IMG/VR virus record: IMGVR_UViG_3300009514_000024
Location: 1 to 63,892 of that record
DNA: 63,892 nucleotides
DNA from: a virus
Taxonomy: Duplodnaviria; Caudoviricetes
Reading direction: 5' to 3' (one strand)
A program made the position numbers and the translations under genes. The notes beneath the pieces are model-generated. The model was not told the origin of the DNA and ran no database searches. It was given only the letters and a program-made list of their open reading frames with translations. Positions 4,413 to 13,202 of this stretch are shown here, piece after piece. Numbering within the stretch: position 1 is the first letter of the stretch; every line of letters starts with the position of its first letter.

Positions 4413-4640
4413 TTATTTATATTCTTTGACTATTTTGGGTTGAGCATATTTTATTTTTAAATGTTCAATCATTTCTTCGGCTTCTTTTAGACTATCGTAA
4501 TATTCCCTGATAAATACATTCTCACACCAAGCACCGACTTCAGACCATAACCAAAAGTTCCAAGGTCTTTTGGCCTGAATAAAATACTTACCATCAGCAC
4601 TTCTTAATATTCTAAATTTCTTCACTTTTATTGGTTTCAT
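4413..4640 (-). CDS. Hypothetical protein
   Basis: ORF with 4-nt overlap to upstream gene. Confidence 0.55.
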   Translation of the reverse strand: MKPIKVKKFRILRSADGKYFIQAKRPWNFWLWSEVGAWCENVFIREYYDSLKEAEEMIEHLKIKYAQPKIVKEYK

Positions 4641-5566
4641 TTCTTTACCTTAAATTTATCAAACTTACTTGTGTCTTTTTTCTCTGCAAAATCTTTAATT
4701 ATCATTCCATAGTTATTTATGCCATCTGGAATAATCATTCCTTTTTTCCTAATCAGAGGTGTCTTTTTAAATGAACTATAATCCACATTATGATGCCACC
4801 TACCGAACTTCCAAACCACTTCTGCTATATCTGGATGTTGGTCTGCAAGCATTTGGGATTTAGCTCTAGTTCCCTCGATATACAATTCATCAGTATTTCC
4901 ACCCTTCATTCTCTGAGTAGTGACCTTCCCACACAGAAAGGCATTGAATTGAATCGTGCAATATCCATCCTTTAAAATTCTCAAACATAAATCCACATCT
5001 TCATTATACCGACCTTGCCATTTGTATGGTATATCATTCCTTATCAGTAAGCAAGAATAAACCTTAGTGTTCTTCAGATATGGCGGTACTTTGTCGGTAG
5101 CCTTGCAGAATGAATTATAATTCATCCCTGCCACATATACATTTTCATACCTTTCAACAAAATCTTCACTGGCCCGAAAAATGGCTCCTGTTCTAACAGG
5201 TAAAATCATGTTCCGATTGAGCCTGTAAAATTCTTCTAAATTATCATCTAGAATCCAGTGATAAGTTGAACCTTCTGATATGGAATGTTCCCAACAAAAG
5301 TTTCTAGCTCCCCCCGAACCTTTGGCTTTAGTGTCACCCAAGTCATCATAGGTTACATATTCATCCTTGTATTTCTGCGGAAGAACCAAAATATCTTCTT
5401 TGTCGAAATATCTCAGGTAGTTACCGTATTCGCTTTTCTCGACCACTATGCGGTGTTTTACACCAAGCCTATCCAATGCCCTACTGGTTGTTCTACTTTC
5501 CCATCTGCCCTTTGAAATCACATATATCGGGTGTCTAGGGTTCGTTGACATACCGCTTTTGGCCAT
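4637..5566 (-). CDS. GT-A fold glycosyltransferase, GREB1-like/TET-associated (TAGT) type; candidate DNA base modifier
   Basis: PIYVISKGR, GARNFCW, HWILDDN, YNEDVDL, MKGGNT motifs. Confidence 0.7.
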   Translation of the reverse strand: MAKSGMSTNPRHPIYVISKGRWESRTTSRALDRLGVKHRIVVEKSEYGNYLRYFDKEDILVLPQKYKDEYVTYDDLGDTKAKGSGGARNFCWEHSISEGSTYHWILDDNLEEFYRLNRNMILPVRTGAIFRASEDFVERYENVYVAGMNYNSFCKATDKVPPYLKNTKVYSCLLIRNDIPYKWQGRYNEDVDLCLRILKDGYCTIQFNAFLCGKVTTQRMKGGNTDELYIEGTRAKSQMLADQHPDIAEVVWKFGRWHHNVDYSSFKKTPLIRKKGMIIPDGINNYGMIIKDFAEKKDTSKFDKFKVKK

Positions 5567-6090: not shown

Positions 6091-7164
6091 TTAGAAACTT
6101 AGTCCACCTGTATCATAAGGATCGTTTCTCAATGACTTGAAAGATGTTCTGCCTTTTGCTTGGGCAGAATCAGTAACAAGCGACATATATACAACATGAT
6201 TGTCTCCATGATATAAAGCCTGTCCTTTGAATCCACTTCCATCTAACTTAGTCATCGCCAGTTCATTAATTTGTTCCTGCTTGGTTCTATTTACCGCAAT
6301 CTGAGCCATTACACTAACCTTGCTTTTTAAACCAGTAACAAATTCATCCTTTGTCTTGGTATATTCTGCTTCCAAATCTTCCAATGTTTCCACATCTTCG
6401 ATTTTCAACAGAGGTGTGTGTATCTCTGCGTTGCCATTCTCAATAGCTCTTACGGCTTCCGCACCGTATGAGTCTCTGATAAAGGCTCTCCAAGTCTGTT
6501 TCCAAGTTTCGTACTTAGGAACAATATCAACTGCTACGATTTTATCATTGATTAAAACGATAGCTCCTAATTGATTTTTTACTGGTTCAAATTGGGCGAT
6601 AAACTCATTCAATTTATCTTCATACTGAGAATAAAAAGTTTGAAGTCCATTAACACCGTTCTTTGAAATCCATTTCTCAAGACCACCCCACATTGGAGAA
6701 TAGTCATTTCCATCTTTATAATTGCTATTCTTATCATAGGCCAACTTTCTAAGTGAGGGAGCCAACATCATAAAAGATGAATGGTCAAGTTTTCTCACAT
6801 CGAAATGTCCACTCTGGCTTGGCTGAACACAGTTAGCGGGAATGGTTTTGTTGCCTTTTGTTTTGATAAGGTGTGCAAAAGGAATAGTTCTATCTTGGGC
6901 AGGTTGATCATTAATCAAAGTCCAACCCTGCAATGCGATCCCGATTTCTCCACTTACATTTTGGAAAGTTAATCTTCCATATTCAGGATCGTTTTTTAAA
7001 GTTACTTCATTTTGGTCTGCTACATTCGTGAACTCATGGTCACTTACGATAGGGAGAACTGTCATGTTACCAACACTTTGGATGTTGTCTTTATCAATTG
7101 TGTAGCCGTTAAGCAAATCACCGATTTCAATTTTGTCTGACATTTTCTCTCCTTTAAAGGCCAA
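6091..7164 (-). CDS. ARPP-like protein (ARPP-1/ARPP-2, DUF6569-related); likely start MSDKIE at 7143
   Basis: IQSVGNMTVLPIV, AQDR...IPANCVQ and FIAQFEPVKNQLGAIVLIND motifs; sits downstream of the vWA partner gene; AGGAG upstream of 7143. Confidence 0.6.
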   Translation of the reverse strand: MAFKGEKMSDKIEIGDLLNGYTIDKDNIQSVGNMTVLPIVSDHEFTNVADQNEVTLKNDPEYGRLTFQNVSGEIGIALQGWTLINDQPAQDRTIPFAHLIKTKGNKTIPANCVQPSQSGHFDVRKLDHSSFMMLAPSLRKLAYDKNSNYKDGNDYSPMWGGLEKWISKNGVNGLQTFYSQYEDKLNEFIAQFEPVKNQLGAIVLINDKIVAVDIVPKYETWKQTWRAFIRDSYGAEAVRAIENGNAEIHTPLLKIEDVETLEDLEAEYTKTKDEFVTGLKSKVSVMAQIAVNRTKQEQINELAMTKLDGSGFKGQALYHGDNHVVYMSLVTDSAQAKGRTSFKSLRNDPYDTGGLSF

Positions 7165-7612
7165 TAACCTTTTTCATAATGTTTCTCGAATGTACATATA
7201 AATCGTTTGTAATCGTTATATAAGGATTAATTAATTTTGTTTGTATGTAAACATCTTGTTTTCTTTTATAACCTTCTTGTACACCTATAGCAATCGAACC
7301 ATATGGTCTTAATGCTAAATGCCTACCCAACTCATACATACAAATAGGCTGATCTGACTCTCCTGATGTGAACCACATACTAAACACATCACAATTATTC
7401 AATGCGTGAAATTCCCATTCTATTTGCTCTTGTGAAGCACTAGGATCGTTTATTGGGAAATCTTTTCTCCTTGGATTTATTACCGCTATATCTTCTTCAG
7501 AAAGAAAGTTGATTATTTTTTGTTGCCAATCTGGGCAGTTTGTAATACCCCCCGCAAGAAATACGGTTGGTAATTCTGTTTCTATTTTCTCTGGTGCGGT
7601 GAATATTTCCAT
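7154..7612 (-). CDS. Nucleoside 2-deoxyribosyltransferase-like protein
   Basis: VFLAGGITNCPDWQ, INPRR, EQIEWE, YELG motifs. Confidence 0.85.
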   Translation of the reverse strand: MEIFTAPEKIETELPTVFLAGGITNCPDWQQKIINFLSEEDIAVINPRRKDFPINDPSASQEQIEWEFHALNNCDVFSMWFTSGESDQPICMYELGRHLALRPYGSIAIGVQEGYKRKQDVYIQTKLINPYITITNDLYVHSRNIMKKVIGL

Positions 7613-7638
7613 AAATTATTTCAATTTGTTAAAAAAAA

Positions 7639-7767
7639 AGAAGGGCTAAGTAAGTAAAGTTGTTTTGTTGAAATAGTGGGGATCGAACCCACTGCCTTTT
7701 TTTTCGATAAAAAAGCTCTACCAAATGAGCTATATTTCTGAAACTTTTCTTTTAAGAGCCACTTCCT
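7639..7767 (-). ncRNA. Y RNA-like ncRNA unit 1 (scaffold enclosing a normal-topology tRNA mimic)
   Basis: Outer stem GAAG(T)GGCT/AGCCCTTC, inner stem AAAGTT/AACTTT, enclosing GAAATA...D arm...T arm...TATTTC. Confidence 0.75.
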
Positions 7768-7793
7768 TTTTCATTTTAATTTTAATTTTTTTA

Positions 7794-7967
7794 AAGAGGG
7801 TTAGTTTACTAAAGTTATTGATTATGAAGCTCTACCAACTGAGCTAACTCCCCTTGATGTGAACACCTTTCGATGTTTACATTGGCGGGGAGTGTAGGAA
7901 TCGAACCTACGACCTTCGCATTAACAGTGCGTTGTATTCTGAAACTTTGGTATTTAGAACCACTCCT
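7794..7967 (-). ncRNA. Y RNA-like ncRNA unit 2 (circularly permuted tRNA mimic, GTT anticodon arm)
   Basis: Order: anticodon arm, T arm, ACTCCCC-GCCA, linker hairpin, GGGGAGT, D arm, inside the shared scaffold. Confidence 0.8.
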
Positions 7968-7986
7968 TTTTTTAAAGTTTACATGG

Positions 7987-8062
7987 AAGAGAGATTGTCA
8001 AAAGAAATTTGGATTAAGATTCAGTTTCTAATTCTGTAATTTCTTTTTTTAGTTCTACTCTT
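7987..8062 (-). ncRNA. Y RNA-like ncRNA unit 3 (minimal scaffold, no tRNA domain)
   Basis: AAGAG(T)AGA/TCTCTCTT and AAAGAAATT/AATTTCTTT stems plus CTAAA and ACAG motifs; bipartite promoter immediately upstream. Confidence 0.65.
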
Positions 8063-8134
8063 ATCTTACTTATAACTTATATTCTTTTTGAAATTTAAAT
8101 CCTAATTTTTGGACTTTTCTTTTTTAAAATTTTG

Positions 8135-8310
8135 GTAGTTTAAAAGAGGGCGGGTCTGATAAAATTGTGTTTTCTTTAATCTACCTTGCCAAGTAACATT
8201 CTCGAAAAAATGATGGTGGCAAGGGTTGGACTCGAACCAACAGACTTTAGTTTATGATACTAATGATTTATCCTGAAATTTTCTCATTAAGTGCCACTCT
8301 TTTAAACTAT
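8135..8310 (-). ncRNA. Y RNA-like ncRNA unit 4 (circularly permuted tRNA mimic, CAT anticodon arm)
   Basis: Long terminal stem; TTAGT-ATCATAA-ACTAA; T arm GTTGG-TTCGAGT-CCAAC; CCTTGCC-ACCA...GGCAAGG; late promoter at 8327-8334. Confidence 0.75.
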
Positions 8311-8353
8311 TTTTATGCTCTGATTTTATTTATAATACCAAGCTGTTTTGAAT

Positions 8354-9913
8354 TTAGGCCGTTAATTTCTTATTCTTATCGGCCAGTAATTCCTTCAACC
8401 CCACAGGCATTATTGCTTTTGCTTTCTCATTTTGAAACTCTACAAGGTGTCTTGCATATCCTTCCAAAGCAACTTTAGGGTTGTTTCTGGCGATAGCAAG
8501 GAACATAGATTCATTCAGACCTTCGATTCCTTTAACACCGATTTGGGGTGCTAGAGAAGTGATGTTTCTAGAATCCAGTGATTCGGAAGCAAACACAGGG
8601 TTTAAATGAAGAACCACAAGTTCATTCTGCGGATCTAATTTCTTCTTGTAAGTGTACAGGATGTTATGTGTAGCCCCTTCATATGGAGCATTTTCATATC
8701 CATCCCCAATAATTACAATTGTCTTACATCCATCTTTAAGAGCCTGTAAAACCGAATCAGCATAGTTGGATTGATTCTTCAGAGAAGGAATCAAACCAGT
8801 GCTTGGATTAGTTCGGTATTCTTTGAAAGTCCCTTTTGAGGCTTCTTTGAATACTGCACTTAAAGCCATCCCCTTATACAGAGGGTGATTTGGATTCTGT
8901 TTTGTACCATACATACTCAGTGAGGTATCCAAAATAACACCAACATCTTTCAGATCAAAGGATAGAGTTCTAGCCACCTTTTTAGCCTGTTTAGAAATCA
9001 GCTTTTTAATATTGGTCACTGTATCTGGCAACCTACTTTGTGCTGAAATATGTACAATCAAATCAAATAGTTTCAATTTGGAGATATCTAGTCCAGTAGA
9101 TTCACCAGACTTTTCAACCGCTTTACTTTTCAACCGTTTTTCTTTAGCAGTAAATTTCCCGCCTTTTTTAACAAACAGTTTATCAAATTCTTCTTTAGAA
9201 AGTCCAAACTTAGTCTGGAATCCTTCTGCGACAGTATAGGGAAGTGAAGCTAATAAATCTGAATCCCCATTCCGAACTTTCTCATAATTACGAATAACAT
9301 CTGGGGTGTTGCTATCAACTACTCCCATACGAATGTATTGGTGAATTGTGGAAAGTTTCAGTTCAGATTTTTTAACATGGATATGTCTCAAAATCCTGTT
9401 CATGGGTGTTCTATACTTAATAGCCCACAAACCCCAACTGTCTTTGTGTTCATTCAGGAATCTTCTTACCACATATACGGCTCTCTTCTTATTGATCTTG
9501 CCTTCCTGCAATGTGAGGAAGAAATCGAACACTCTTGGAATAGGCATATTGTTGAAGATTTGAAGCATGATCTCATTCTCCCATTGGGTAGTGGGATCTG
9601 CTTGGTGGTCTTTCAACCCTTCCTCTCTCAAGGTGTTTCGAATGAGATTCAATGCCATCAACTGTTTGTTGACATCATTAACCCCTTCTGGGAGCATCAT
9701 TAGTGAGTAGAAAAATCGTGAGTTCTTGAACACCTGTTCATGTTGGGATATCATAGCTTTCTTTTGTTCTTCAGCCAGATTATAGAAAGTGGTTCTCCCT
9801 ATATTTGATTGACATCCCGAAATAAATCCTAATAACTGATCAGAAGTCAGTTTTTTTTTCTTTGAAACTGTAGTAGTTGACTCTGATTCTCTTTCAAGTA
9901 AGTCTGTTGACAT
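8354..9913 (-). CDS. Ro60/TROVE-like protein: helical N-terminal region plus C-terminal vWA domain
   Basis: MIDAS motif ILDTSLSM and IVIIGDGYEN; 519 aa as in Ro60; adjacent tRNA-mimic RNAs. TROVE assignment is inference. Confidence 0.6.
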   Translation of the reverse strand: MSTDLLERESESTTTVSKKKKLTSDQLLGFISGCQSNIGRTTFYNLAEEQKKAMISQHEQVFKNSRFFYSLMMLPEGVNDVNKQLMALNLIRNTLREEGLKDHQADPTTQWENEIMLQIFNNMPIPRVFDFFLTLQEGKINKKRAVYVVRRFLNEHKDSWGLWAIKYRTPMNRILRHIHVKKSELKLSTIHQYIRMGVVDSNTPDVIRNYEKVRNGDSDLLASLPYTVAEGFQTKFGLSKEEFDKLFVKKGGKFTAKEKRLKSKAVEKSGESTGLDISKLKLFDLIVHISAQSRLPDTVTNIKKLISKQAKKVARTLSFDLKDVGVILDTSLSMYGTKQNPNHPLYKGMALSAVFKEASKGTFKEYRTNPSTGLIPSLKNQSNYADSVLQALKDGCKTIVIIGDGYENAPYEGATHNILYTYKKKLDPQNELVVLHLNPVFASESLDSRNITSLAPQIGVKGIEGLNESMFLAIARNNPKVALEGYARHLVEFQNEKAKAIMPVGLKELLADKNKKLTA

Positions 9914-10558: not shown

Positions 10559-10927
10559 TCAGCTATTTATAATCTCACCAAATTCCTGATAAACAATACT
10601 GATTGGTTTAATTATCGCTTTAGGAATACAGTTGTGCATATTCCTTGCCCCTACTGGATTAAAACTATGAATAAACATCTTTGCTGGTTGTCTTTCGGGG
10701 TTTTGCTCTAACCACTCTGCGACCTGATAACCTGTACCTTCCCCACTATCTACAAACACCTGTCCACCTAAATCATGGTCTAAGAATACCATATCCCAAT
10801 TTTTGGTTTCTAACATTTCAATACATTCACTGGCCGTATATACATGACAAACATAGTGCTCTATAGGAACTAGTTTTTTAATGTAATTATGTCTAGTTTG
10901 ATCATCATCTAAGAATAAAATATTCAT
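10559..10927 (-). CDS. Cyclic-phosphate-processing receiver-like domain protein
   Basis: ILFLDDD, FLDHDLG, TGYQVAEWL, IHSFNPVGARNM motifs. Confidence 0.75.
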   Translation of the reverse strand: MNILFLDDDQTRHNYIKKLVPIEHYVCHVYTASECIEMLETKNWDMVFLDHDLGGQVFVDSGEGTGYQVAEWLEQNPERQPAKMFIHSFNPVGARNMHNCIPKAIIKPISIVYQEFGEIINS

Positions 10928-11376
10928 ATTAAATATACCACTGGTTGAACTCTAGTTAATTCTTCTTCTATAATTTGTTCAATAATATCCCAATTTCCAC
11001 CAGCTAAACCTGCACCAATTTTAGGCATAGCTACTGTTTTATCTTTTTTTAAGACATGTCCAACAGAATTTATCAGTTTCATACATGAACGGATAGCATC
11101 ATAATCACAGTATCTTTTATTTTTTTTACCATAAAACTCTTGAGTTATACAATTGTAAATAGTAACATCTTTTTCATATGATATAATTATGGTTCCTAAA
11201 GTCAAATTATTACCATTTAATATATATCTTTGATGATAAATATCAAAAGCATTTGGCCACTTTTCTCTGATTAACTTTGCAACCCCTGATCCCATAACAC
11301 CTTGAGCATTGCAACCATGTGCAATGTAAGGTTCGGTTGCTTCTAGCAAATCTCCTTTTTTGTAAACAATTTTCAT
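10924..11376 (-). CDS. Macrodomain (ADP-ribose binding/processing) protein
   Basis: KGDLL...IAHGCNAQGVMGSGVA...MPKIGAGLAGGNW. Confidence 0.9.
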   Translation of the reverse strand: MKIVYKKGDLLEATEPYIAHGCNAQGVMGSGVAKLIREKWPNAFDIYHQRYILNGNNLTLGTIIISYEKDVTIYNCITQEFYGKKNKRYCDYDAIRSCMKLINSVGHVLKKDKTVAMPKIGAGLAGGNWDIIEQIIEEELTRVQPVVYLI

Positions 11377-13098: not shown

Positions 13099-13117
13099 TT
13101 TTAAATATTATTATAAG

Positions 13118-13202
13118 CTGACATGGTAGGGATCGAACCTACTATGGGATTTCTCCAACAGATTAACAGTCTGCCCCCTGCTACCAATTCGGGTTCATGT
13201 CA
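13118..13202 (-). tRNA. tRNA-Asn(GTT) with long variable arm
   Basis: Acceptor TGACATG/CATGTCA, G73; anticodon arm GCAGA-CTGTTAA-TCTGT; variable hairpin GGA-GAAA-TCC. Confidence 0.85.

Follow-up and report, generated by a model that had tools for sequence, protein, structure and literature searches.

A predicted YrlA-like phage RNA carrying a circularly permuted tRNA-Asn mimic beside a gene for a predicted Ro60-fold protein

We analyzed a tailed-phage record of 63,892 bases (IMG/VR IMGVR_UViG_3300009514_000024; Duplodnaviria, Caudoviricetes), here called the window, which has a GC content of about 33% and represents an estimated ~27% of its genome. Its minus strand encodes W3, a predicted RNA of about 175 nucleotides (nt) at 7793-7966 that contains the parts of a transfer RNA (tRNA) for asparagine in circularly permuted order. 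W3 shares a paired scaffold with three neighboring RNAs and lies 387 nt downstream of, and on the same strand as, P0001, a gene for a protein with a predicted Ro60 fold. The best overall explanation, which we hold at slightly less than even confidence, is that W3 is a YrlA-like Y RNA bearing a complete permuted tRNA-Asn mimic that is tethered to the Ro protein, processed, and directed at tRNA.

Anatomy, fold and conservation of the permuted module

The minus strand of W3 reads, in order, an anticodon arm, a T arm, the 3' acceptor strand, GCCA, a linker hairpin capped by GAAA, the 5' acceptor strand and a D arm (Table 1), exactly as the initial annotation of the sequence had described. The cloverleaf is opened between the D and anticodon arms, and the scaffold, whose flanking strands (7935-7966 and 7793-7824) pair in three helices, is attached there; on this second element of the earlier description the sequence and RNAfold agree. 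In native order, neither ARAGORN nor the Rfam tRNA model called a tRNA at 7794-7967. When positions 7829-7853 were joined by script to 7883-7932, giving tRNA order, ARAGORN called a 75-nt tRNA-Asn(gtt) with a 7-base-pair (bp) acceptor, a 4-bp D stem and a 5-bp T stem. Two tRNA-Asn genes, the canonical one of the most closely related locus (L001) and that of Lactococcus phage LW31, each agree with this un-permuted sequence at 59 of 75 positions. From the D arm through the anticodon arm and the variable loop to the T arm the sequences are nearly the same, and most mismatches fall in the acceptor stem. Positions 7894-7931 matched 13 Lactococcus phage records, with 94.7% identity in all 13, and 11 of these matches are annotated as tRNA-Asn; a blastn search of the locus against the phage collection returned nothing beyond this 38-nt tRNA-Asn match. 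The ARAGORN call on the joined halves and the near-identity of the core to phage tRNA-Asn genes support the proposal that the module mimics tRNA-Asn. As to the ordinary genes, the canonical tRNA-Asn(gtt) of the window, 86 nt long, does not encode CCA and has a variable region of unusual length, and that of L001 is 77 nt long and encodes GCCA.

The structure of W3 was predicted by RNAfold without guidance, with the minimum free energy structure equal to the centroid (-51.3 kcal/mol, z = -4.64), and none of 200 dinucleotide shuffles folded as stably. The hairpin in the place of the anticodon arm has a loop at 7921-7927, with GUU at 7923-7925, on a stem of four Watson-Crick pairs and one A.A apposition, and is identical across CGCACUGUUAAUGCGAA to the tRNA-Asn of phage LW31. 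Reading of the sequence showed that the nucleotides of the tRNA tertiary fold are all present (U8, A14, G15:C48, G18, G19, G22:G46, U54:A58, U55 and C56), so that the module should fold as a tRNA-Asn look-alike. The features of an RNase P substrate, namely a 7-bp acceptor, G+1 and G73-CCA, are also found. No open reading frame (ORF) of at least 60 amino acids (aa) lies wholly inside 7612-8354; a 74-aa plus-strand ORF (8254-8478) extends into the upstream end of this interval.

The W3 architecture is conserved, with covariation, in related loci. L001, the closest ortholog, whose Ro-like protein is 82% identical to that of the window, has the same type of RNA with compensatory changes in the acceptor (AUUCCCC/GGGGAAU, C-G to U-A), the D stem (ACUC/GAGU, G-C to A-U) and the anticodon stem (UUGCA/UGCGA, which forms five pairs), and with one wobble in the T stem. 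The more distant locus L027, with a 52% identical Ro-like protein, has two such RNAs (L027a and L027b) upstream of its gene. In L027a the anticodon stem UUCGC/GCGAG is wholly unlike that of W3, while the loop UUGUUAA keeps xUGUUAA. L027b has the loop UUCAUAA, together with UCCA, and corresponds to the neighboring RNA W1 of the window, whose loop is AUCAUAA; here UCAUAA is kept and the stem is again wholly different. Two classes of anticodon loop, GUU and CAU, thus persist across stem turnover, and the retention of loops while stems were fully replaced, between lineages with proteins only 52% identical, argues for selection on the loop. Equivalents of the helix that closes the junction are predicted as GAAU/AUUC in L027a and GAAUUAA/UUAAAUC in L001, and all seven of the RNAs folded separately adopted the scaffold and multi-arm junction unaided. 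It is therefore highly improbable that W3 is non-functional debris, a tRNA-Asn gene scrambled by recombination amid homing endonuclease genes. HNH endonuclease genes do flank the tRNA region, as such an origin would lead one to expect, but the same architecture recurs with compensatory changes in L001, L027 and more distant contigs, the fold of W3 is very stable, and the scaffold is repeated in four tandem RNAs.

Each of these four RNAs, W1 to W4, has the 5' motif AGURGnnCUnA ... AAARUUUCAGRAU, and in each the 3' strand is rich in C and runs into U-rich sequence. W1 comprises the hairpin UUAGU-AUCAUAA-ACUAA, a T arm, a 7-bp acceptor with the 3' strand CCUUGCC followed by ACCA, a linker hairpin capped by UUCG, and GGCAAGG; a clear D arm was not seen in it. 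The normal-order module of W4 was called tRNA-Ser(cga) by ARAGORN and scored 49.8 bits against the Rfam tRNA model. The anticodon stem of W4 consists of U and A alone, and L001 has two RNAs of the W4 type, called Leu-taa and Arg-tcg.

Table 1 Positions of the parts of W3, the sister RNAs and the principal neighboring genes in the window
Feature	Position	Strand	Basis
W3: scaffold outer helix, 5' strand GGAGUGGUU, U bulged; pairs with 7793-7802	7958-7966	minus	RNAfold; columns invariant in five RNAs
W3: scaffold helix 2, 5' strand AAAGUU, within the conserved AAAGUUUCAGAAU motif; pairs with 7811-7816	7943-7948	minus	fold, alignment
W3: closing helix of the five-way junction, 5' strand GAAUA; pairs with UAAUC, one A.A	7935-7939	minus	read from sequence
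W3: anticodon-arm-like hairpin ACGCA-CUGUUAA-UGCGA	7916-7932	minus	sequence, RNAfold
W3: variable loop AGGUC; G46 and C48 free for the usual tertiary pairs	7911-7915	minus	sequence, ARAGORN
W3: T arm GUAGG-UUCGAUU-CCUAC	7894-7910	minus	sequence, Rfam, ARAGORN, RNAfold
W3: acceptor 3' strand ACUCCCC	7887-7893	minus	sequence, Rfam, ARAGORN, RNAfold
W3: discriminator G and CCA, encoded (GCCA)	7883-7886	minus	sequence
W3: linker, 29 nt; GAAA-capped hairpin 7857-7882, then single-stranded CAA	7854-7882	minus	fold
W3: candidate RNase P site	between 7854 and 7853	minus	inferred
W3: acceptor 5' strand GGGGAGU	7847-7853	minus	sequence, Rfam, ARAGORN, RNAfold
W3: UA (positions 8-9) and D arm GCUC-AGUUGGUA-GAGC	7829-7846	minus	sequence, Rfam, ARAGORN
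W3: closing helix, 3' strand UAAUC	7820-7824	minus	sequence
W3: scaffold helix 2, 3' strand AACUUU	7811-7816	minus	fold
W3: scaffold outer helix, 3' strand AACCCUC and start of U/A-rich tail	7793-7802	minus	sequence, fold
W1: same scaffold; second permuted module	8142-8300	minus	fold and reading
W2: scaffold without tRNA-like module; counterpart in L001	7985-8060	minus	
W4: same scaffold; normal-order tRNA-like module joined via the acceptor stem	7631-7766	minus	
P0001, gene for a 519-aa protein of predicted Ro60 fold (alpha-helical repeats and vWA domain)	8354-9913	minus	AlphaFold, Foldseek
Canonical tRNA-Asn(gtt)	13117-13202	minus	ARAGORN

Permuted modules around related Ro-like genes

Loci around relatives of P0001, 23 from viral contigs and 80 from metagenomes, with some contigs present in both collections, were scanned for further modules. 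To be counted, a module had to show a T stem free of mismatches with a TTCRA loop, then a 7-nt strand; the exact complement of this strand had to occur 3-45 nt downstream, with a D arm two bases further on, and no tRNA called by ARAGORN could overlap. By these criteria, 18 of 104 sources (683 kb) around Ro-like genes yielded 22 unique permuted modules. The same scan of 57 unrelated viral loci (506 kb) returned none, although these loci are a weak control for tRNA density, as they hold 3 tRNAs versus 166. Among 20 of the related loci scanned for tRNA matches, all matches were on the strand of the Ro-like gene. A scan of viral contigs for the combination of scaffold, T loop and CCA yielded 57 stretches, none with a scaffolded RNA and two with a chance T arm near the motif.

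These counts bear on a reading in which the scaffold is a processing or stability element of phage tRNA-like RNAs, such as a leader-trailer duplex or a terminator, and the Ro-like gene is a mere neighbor. In keeping with it, the scaffold lacks the published GNCGAA motif, a U-rich run comes after the terminal stem of every RNA, W4 holds a good normal-order tRNA inside the same scaffold, and all loci are tRNA-rich. We consider it very unlikely in view of the concentration of modules in Ro-like sources relative to the unrelated, tRNA-poor viral loci, the bias of scaffold conservation to the 5' strand, which is how Ro60 contacts Y RNA (PMC4201824), and the existence of W2, a scaffold-only RNA resembling YrlB.

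The anticodon hairpin was not a selection criterion of the module scan. At the position of the anticodon arm, a perfect 5-bp hairpin with a 7-nt loop was found in 12 of the 22 modules, whereas 1000 shuffles of the flanks averaged 0.71 and never exceeded 4, and at least four of five pairs were found in 19 (mean 6.0, maximum 13 in the same shuffles). Position-anchored counts and shuffles were used; a MAFFT alignment of 13 modules misaligned the anticodon and acceptor regions in several rows. Five of the 12 perfect hairpins stand 5' of the variable loop, as in W3, and seven just 3' of the D arm. These placements indicate that the scaffold can be attached at three points, the D/anticodon hinge, the variable region and the acceptor end. 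When the loops were read by eye, most were seen to keep U33 and a purine at position 37 and several were not, U33 being missing in 5 of 21. The discriminator bases of the modules often mismatch tRNA identity rules, which argues against charging as a general property.

Eight modules (L041:1176, L051:1926, L042:479, L022:1013, L023:765, L035:1485, L018:5110 and L086:6276) represent a third topology, with the anticodon-type hairpin after the D arm and the scaffold standing where the variable arm would be. All eight have perfect 5-bp stems, and four have NCCA in a short acceptor loop. By reading, GGGG opens the 5' acceptor strand of 12 of the 16 modules that have their anticodon hairpin 5' of the T arm, regardless of the loop, and of only one of the eight modules of the other topology; this bias could stem from common ancestry with swapped bodies or from a shared recognition feature. 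A full-length transfer-messenger RNA (tmRNA; 101.3 bits) at L042:1249-1620, plus strand, flanks a Ro-like gene on a phage-like metagenome contig. Two looser screens contributed no counts: a 12-mer scan of the loci allowing two mismatches was set aside as mostly noise, and brute-force rotation of 27 modules through ARAGORN, which gave many alternative anticodons for each, was too permissive for anything other than leads.

The Ro-like neighbor and a possible role for W3

An AlphaFold (AF2) model of the P0001 protein built from 35 sequences had a mean predicted local distance difference test score (pLDDT) of 84.5 and a predicted template modeling score (pTM) of 0.79. In a Foldseek search of the PDB with this model, all 12 matches with an expect value (E) of at most 0.001 were Ro60/TROVE proteins (E 1.8e-6 to 1.1e-4), aligned over approximately the full length and including frog Ro60, human Ro60, Deinococcus Rsr and a Thermus phage Ro60. 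The modeled ring of helical repeats followed by a C-terminal vWA domain with a metal-ion-dependent adhesion site (MIDAS) corresponds to the Ro60/TROVE architecture, and the MIDAS residues of the DxSxS motif (D329, S331 and S333) are invariant in the 35 sequences. In the ESM Atlas, the nearest named clusters were TROVE (score 0.95), and the TROVE and vWA_Ro60 set was found in 20 of 30 matches. The modeled fold, which matches Ro60/TROVE alone in the PDB at this threshold, thus supports the earlier suggestion of a Ro-like neighbor. As the structure and Atlas matches come without a Pfam match, the term Ro-like is accepted here for the fold and not for Pfam membership. The P0001 protein is the presumed partner of the scaffolded RNAs, and the 5' strand of the outer helix its presumed binding site.

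Among the 72 homologs of P0001 listed, none has a precomputed Pfam domain. Nearly all are metagenomic, and many lie on contigs of 100-435 kb. A tblastn search of the phage collection with P0001 matched one record, an uncultured 462-kb phage (22.6% identity), and its matches included no cultured host system for the family. An ARPP-1 (PF20208) gene is found in the window at 6091-7164, minus strand, and in 62 of 103 related loci an ARPP-1-like gene was detected by tblastn on the strand of the Ro-like gene, mostly directly downstream of it. The gene contexts listed in the available part of the paper defining ARPP (PMC9503650) include no Ro-like pairing. The family thus appears to be a sizeable group of Ro60-fold proteins in large uncultivated phages that domain databases have overlooked and that is regularly paired with an ARPP-1 gene in tRNA arrays.

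Regarding the W3 RNA itself, for which we infer expression, protein binding, processing and function, we propose the following model. The ends of W3 would pair into the long bulged scaffold, whose 5' strand motif, common to the four RNAs, would bind the Ro60-fold protein. The scaffold would close a five-way junction holding a complete tRNA-Asn cloverleaf, circularly permuted with the break at 26/27, the D/anticodon hinge, and with the natural 3' and 5' tRNA ends joined through GCCA and the hairpin linker. RNase P would cut before G(+1) at 7853, and exonucleases would trim the linker to the encoded GCCA; by analogy, these two steps have about an even chance of taking place if the RNA is made. 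This would leave W3 nicked into two pieces that the acceptor stem and the scaffold keep joined, and with its CCA end free. This mimic may engage a tRNA-binding partner, by which the phage could control, protect or repair tRNA in host-phage conflict. A tRNA-directed role is favored by the setting in a tRNA array and the adjacent conserved ARPP-1 gene, and also by published proposals: YrlA's tRNA-like domain might act as a competitive inhibitor of an anticodon nuclease (Hughes et al. 2020, PMC7790460), and the TROVE proteins of jumbo phages have been classed among RNA-repair systems (PMC7824862).

Several observations weigh against this explanation. In W3 itself, the A.A in the anticodon stem falls at 27:43, and the linker hairpin starts directly after CCA, so that it could stack on the acceptor stem as a long closed arm and block trimming; a second, canonical tRNA-Asn(GUU) gene is present in the window. 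The L001 loop reads AUAUUAA, that is AUU and not GUU, and the L001 acceptor is closed by a 7-nt loop (UCAUCAU) with no CCA and no linker hairpin. L027a has GCCU at the place of GCCA, and taken together these orthologs indicate that exact CCA and GUU are not required in every lineage. Across the family, NCCA follows the 3' acceptor strand in 12 of the 22 scan modules and in 15 of 27 modules of a hand-curated set, picked by eye from script matches for a tRNA-type T loop and a non-coding context; ordinary tRNA genes in the same sources encode CCA, by a loose test, in 90 of 166 cases. That CCA is as common in modules as in real tRNA genes fits either inheritance or a shared need. With respect to YrlA, the Rfam model (RF02553) aligned to 7826-7917, minus strand, over T arm, acceptor and D arm at 34.4 bits (local E 1.3e-5), short of the gathering score (69), and of the 114 model positions the alignment covered no more than 24-84. 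No YrlA match at the gathering score was found in 20 related loci. The motif GNCGAAN0-1G, the presumed contact of Rsr, is not found at the 5' end of W3, which reads AAGGAGUGGUUCUAAAUACC; CGAAG occurs in W3 only inside the 3' strand of the anticodon arm. With respect to the protein, P0001 matched no Pfam family (E <= 0.01), including TROVE (PF05731), and no PHROG, sequence searches of PDB chains with P0001 alone and with the 35-sequence profile gave no Ro match, and the TM-scores to Ro60/TROVE structures were no higher than 0.37-0.54.

Some of these features would also be expected of a one-piece Ro-bound Y RNA whose acceptor and linker hairpin together make up a long closed arm and whose GCCA and GUU loop are functionless leftovers of a fairly recent origin from tRNA-Asn gene copies. 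The majority of YrlAs are permuted tRNAs of the closed-loop kind, and the acceptor arm is much longer in some of them (10.1101/312249). Such an RNA would be consistent with a hairpin that immediately follows CCA, with the loss of CCA, linker and G34 in L001, with an NCCA frequency equal to that of ordinary tRNA genes in the same contigs, and with a core near-identical to real tRNA-Asn, as recent derivation would leave it. It fits less well with the exact 7-bp acceptor with G+1, the RNase P determinant named by Chen et al. (PMC4201824), and with loops kept on wholly replaced stems between lineages with 52% identical proteins. We give the one-piece alternative appreciable weight, though clearly under an even chance.

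If W3 is instead processed into a two-piece, Ro-tethered mimic, as we favor, its elements suggest more specific roles. Asparaginyl-tRNA synthetase recognizes GUU, G73 and CCA. We regard charging of W3 with asparagine as unlikely, and a function as bait for an anticodon nuclease as only a little less so. More speculative still is a general scheme in which large phages repeatedly turn tRNA genes into complete replicas tethered to Ro at three attachment places. Here nicked W3 would expose GUU, G73 and CCA, either for charging with asparagine or as a bait or competitive inhibitor of a host anticodon nuclease for tRNA-Asn-type loops, and would thereby shield phage translation. We judge this scheme decidedly unlikely as a whole. 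Published YrlA is a tRNA mimic without the two parts needed for charging and decoding, the anticodon loop and a CCA end. RNAs that have both parts, together with loop conservation despite stem turnover, point to a partner that reads the anticodon loop, the candidates being a synthetase, a modification enzyme and an anticodon nuclease. The purpose of the tRNA domain of Y RNAs thereby becomes a testable question.

T4-type replication genes in the window include those for gp32, the clamp loader, RNase H, a DnaB-type helicase, primase and a RecA/UvsX-type protein. The first 13 kb contain 13 tRNA genes called by ARAGORN, all on the minus strand, with HNH endonuclease genes between them. Three further minus-strand genes among the tRNA genes encode a nucleoside 2-deoxyribosyltransferase-like protein (7154-7612), a TET-associated glycosyltransferase (4637-5566) and a macro-domain protein (10924-11376); these suggest DNA hypermodification and ADP-ribose handling.

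Comparison with known RNAs

Phage T4 encodes the small stable RNAs rnaC and rnaD in a T4-type tRNA cluster, and rnaC, like W3, has a T arm. Their order is normal and the scaffold is not shared; we folded both as candidate relatives, and they were rejected for want of a common scaffold. T4 rnaC (L164, T4 70908-71046) has a very stable predicted fold (z -4.57) and ends in a tRNA-type T arm, and rnaD has no notable fold (z -0.83). To our knowledge, T4 is not known to encode Ro.

In red and green algae and in one archaeon, circularly permuted tRNA genes also have the 3' half upstream of the 5' half and a linker between the acceptor strands. They mature into decoding tRNAs via a bulge-helix-bulge cut and a circular intermediate, whereas in W3 a long, conserved scaffold closes the break, and the window has a canonical tRNA-Asn gene as well. 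By reading, the W3 closing helix has 5 bp with an A.A and unequal flanking single strands and does not look like a 3-4-3 bulge-helix-bulge. W3 could in principle be a true gene of this kind, whose transcript yields a decoding tRNA-Asn either through cutting and rejoining or as a split tRNA; all tRNA parts, GUU, G73 and CCA are there, and the layout is that of algal permuted tRNA genes (10.1101/312249). This is scarcely credible, however, given the canonical tRNA-Asn(gtt) gene already in the window, the AUU and absent CCA of ortholog L001 and the apparent lack, on reading, of a bulge-helix-bulge at the junction. Moreover, neither a splicing endonuclease nor an RNA ligase was found among 30 window proteins by Pfam or 8 by PHROGs, in a record covering about 27% of the genome, and many family loops break tRNA rules, as in those without U33. 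Our literature search, judged by titles and abstract openings, found no report of permuted tRNA genes in phages.

Two-piece tmRNA resembles W3 in its run of T arm, 3' acceptor strand, CCA, excised linker and 5' acceptor strand, excision being a predicted step in W3. This shared layout accounts for a weak match to the Rfam beta_tmRNA model at 7845-7910. The scores for beta_tmRNA (20.9 bits, threshold 84) and tmRNA_permuted (13.0 bits, threshold 47) place W3 outside the tmRNA families. A tag reading frame and pseudoknots are missing from W3, ARAGORN calls no tmRNA there, and W3 has an anticodon arm and a D arm, both absent from tmRNA.

Among Y RNAs, Yrn1 of Deinococcus radiodurans has a possible anticodon arm and, as in the sister RNA W4, a D-before-T orientation. 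It differs in that the order of W3 is permuted, the Yrn1 loop has 6 nt and the Yrn1 D arm is doubtful (PMC4201824). Our literature search found neither the P0001 family nor Y RNAs with an anticodon loop and an encoded CCA, although YrlAs with an anticodon-like V hairpin or an encoded CCA may be present in Fig. S1 and in Tables S1 and S2 of Chen et al. 2014.

The closest known system is YrlA, a Y RNA of bacteria and mycobacteriophages that Rsr/Ro60 binds, whose stem-loops run V, T, AS, D, which carries GNCGAAN0-1G near its 5' end, and which lies within ~4 kb of a Ro60 ortholog on the same strand (Chen et al. 2014, PMC4201824). W3 shares the order of T arm, acceptor stem-loop and D arm, with conserved tRNA-type T and D loops and the UA connector; the initial annotation had likened this order to YrlA, and the Rfam alignment, although below the gathering score, spans just these parts. 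W3 is also close to, and on the strand of, a Ro60-type gene, as judged by fold and Atlas features, has a module-less companion (W2) comparable to YrlB, and has a stem-loop just 5' of the T arm, the place named V by Chen et al. 2014. It differs from YrlA in that the scaffold motif AGURGnnCUnA ... AAAGUUUCAGAAU stands in place of GNCGAAN0-1G, the Rfam score is sub-threshold, and the partner family is undetected by Pfam TROVE. By sequence, the hairpin at the V place is an anticodon arm that agrees over 17 nt with a real tRNA-Asn, and a variable loop of the normal 5 nt comes after it; a fifth helix, distinct from the others, closes the junction; and GCCA is encoded. The preprint on YrlA structure (10.1101/312249) describes YrlA as having neither an anticodon loop nor CCA, in line with the distinction drawn at the outset between W3 and published YrlA. 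A YrlA-type 3-bp closing stem (GAA/UUC) in the Rfam alignment competes with the anticodon hairpin and, by reading, is not kept in L001 or L027a, where the hairpin is; the stem was therefore rejected. W3 would work like YrlA yet falls outside the family by its score and its 5' motif.

The two-piece idea is not new in principle, as it has been demonstrated for YrlA of Mycobacterium smegmatis. RNase P cuts this RNA, whose acceptor stem is 7 bp long, both in vitro and in vivo; the RNA gains CCA, both halves co-precipitate with Rsr, and the 7-bp acceptor with G+1 is its main RNase P substrate determinant (Chen et al., PMC4201824). W3 likewise has a 7-bp acceptor, an expected cut at the position of the tRNA 5' end and CCA on the upstream half, and its halves would be expected to remain with the Ro protein. 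W3, by comparison, encodes its CCA instead of gaining it, and it has an anticodon loop and a linker that forms a stable hairpin; its processing is predicted. A model cited in 10.1101/312249 derives YrlA from dimeric tRNA transcripts. The layout of W3, which runs from the anticodon arm to CCA of one tRNA, through a spacer, and from the acceptor to the D arm of the next, is that expected of an early intermediate in such an origin of YrlA from tandem tRNA transcripts.

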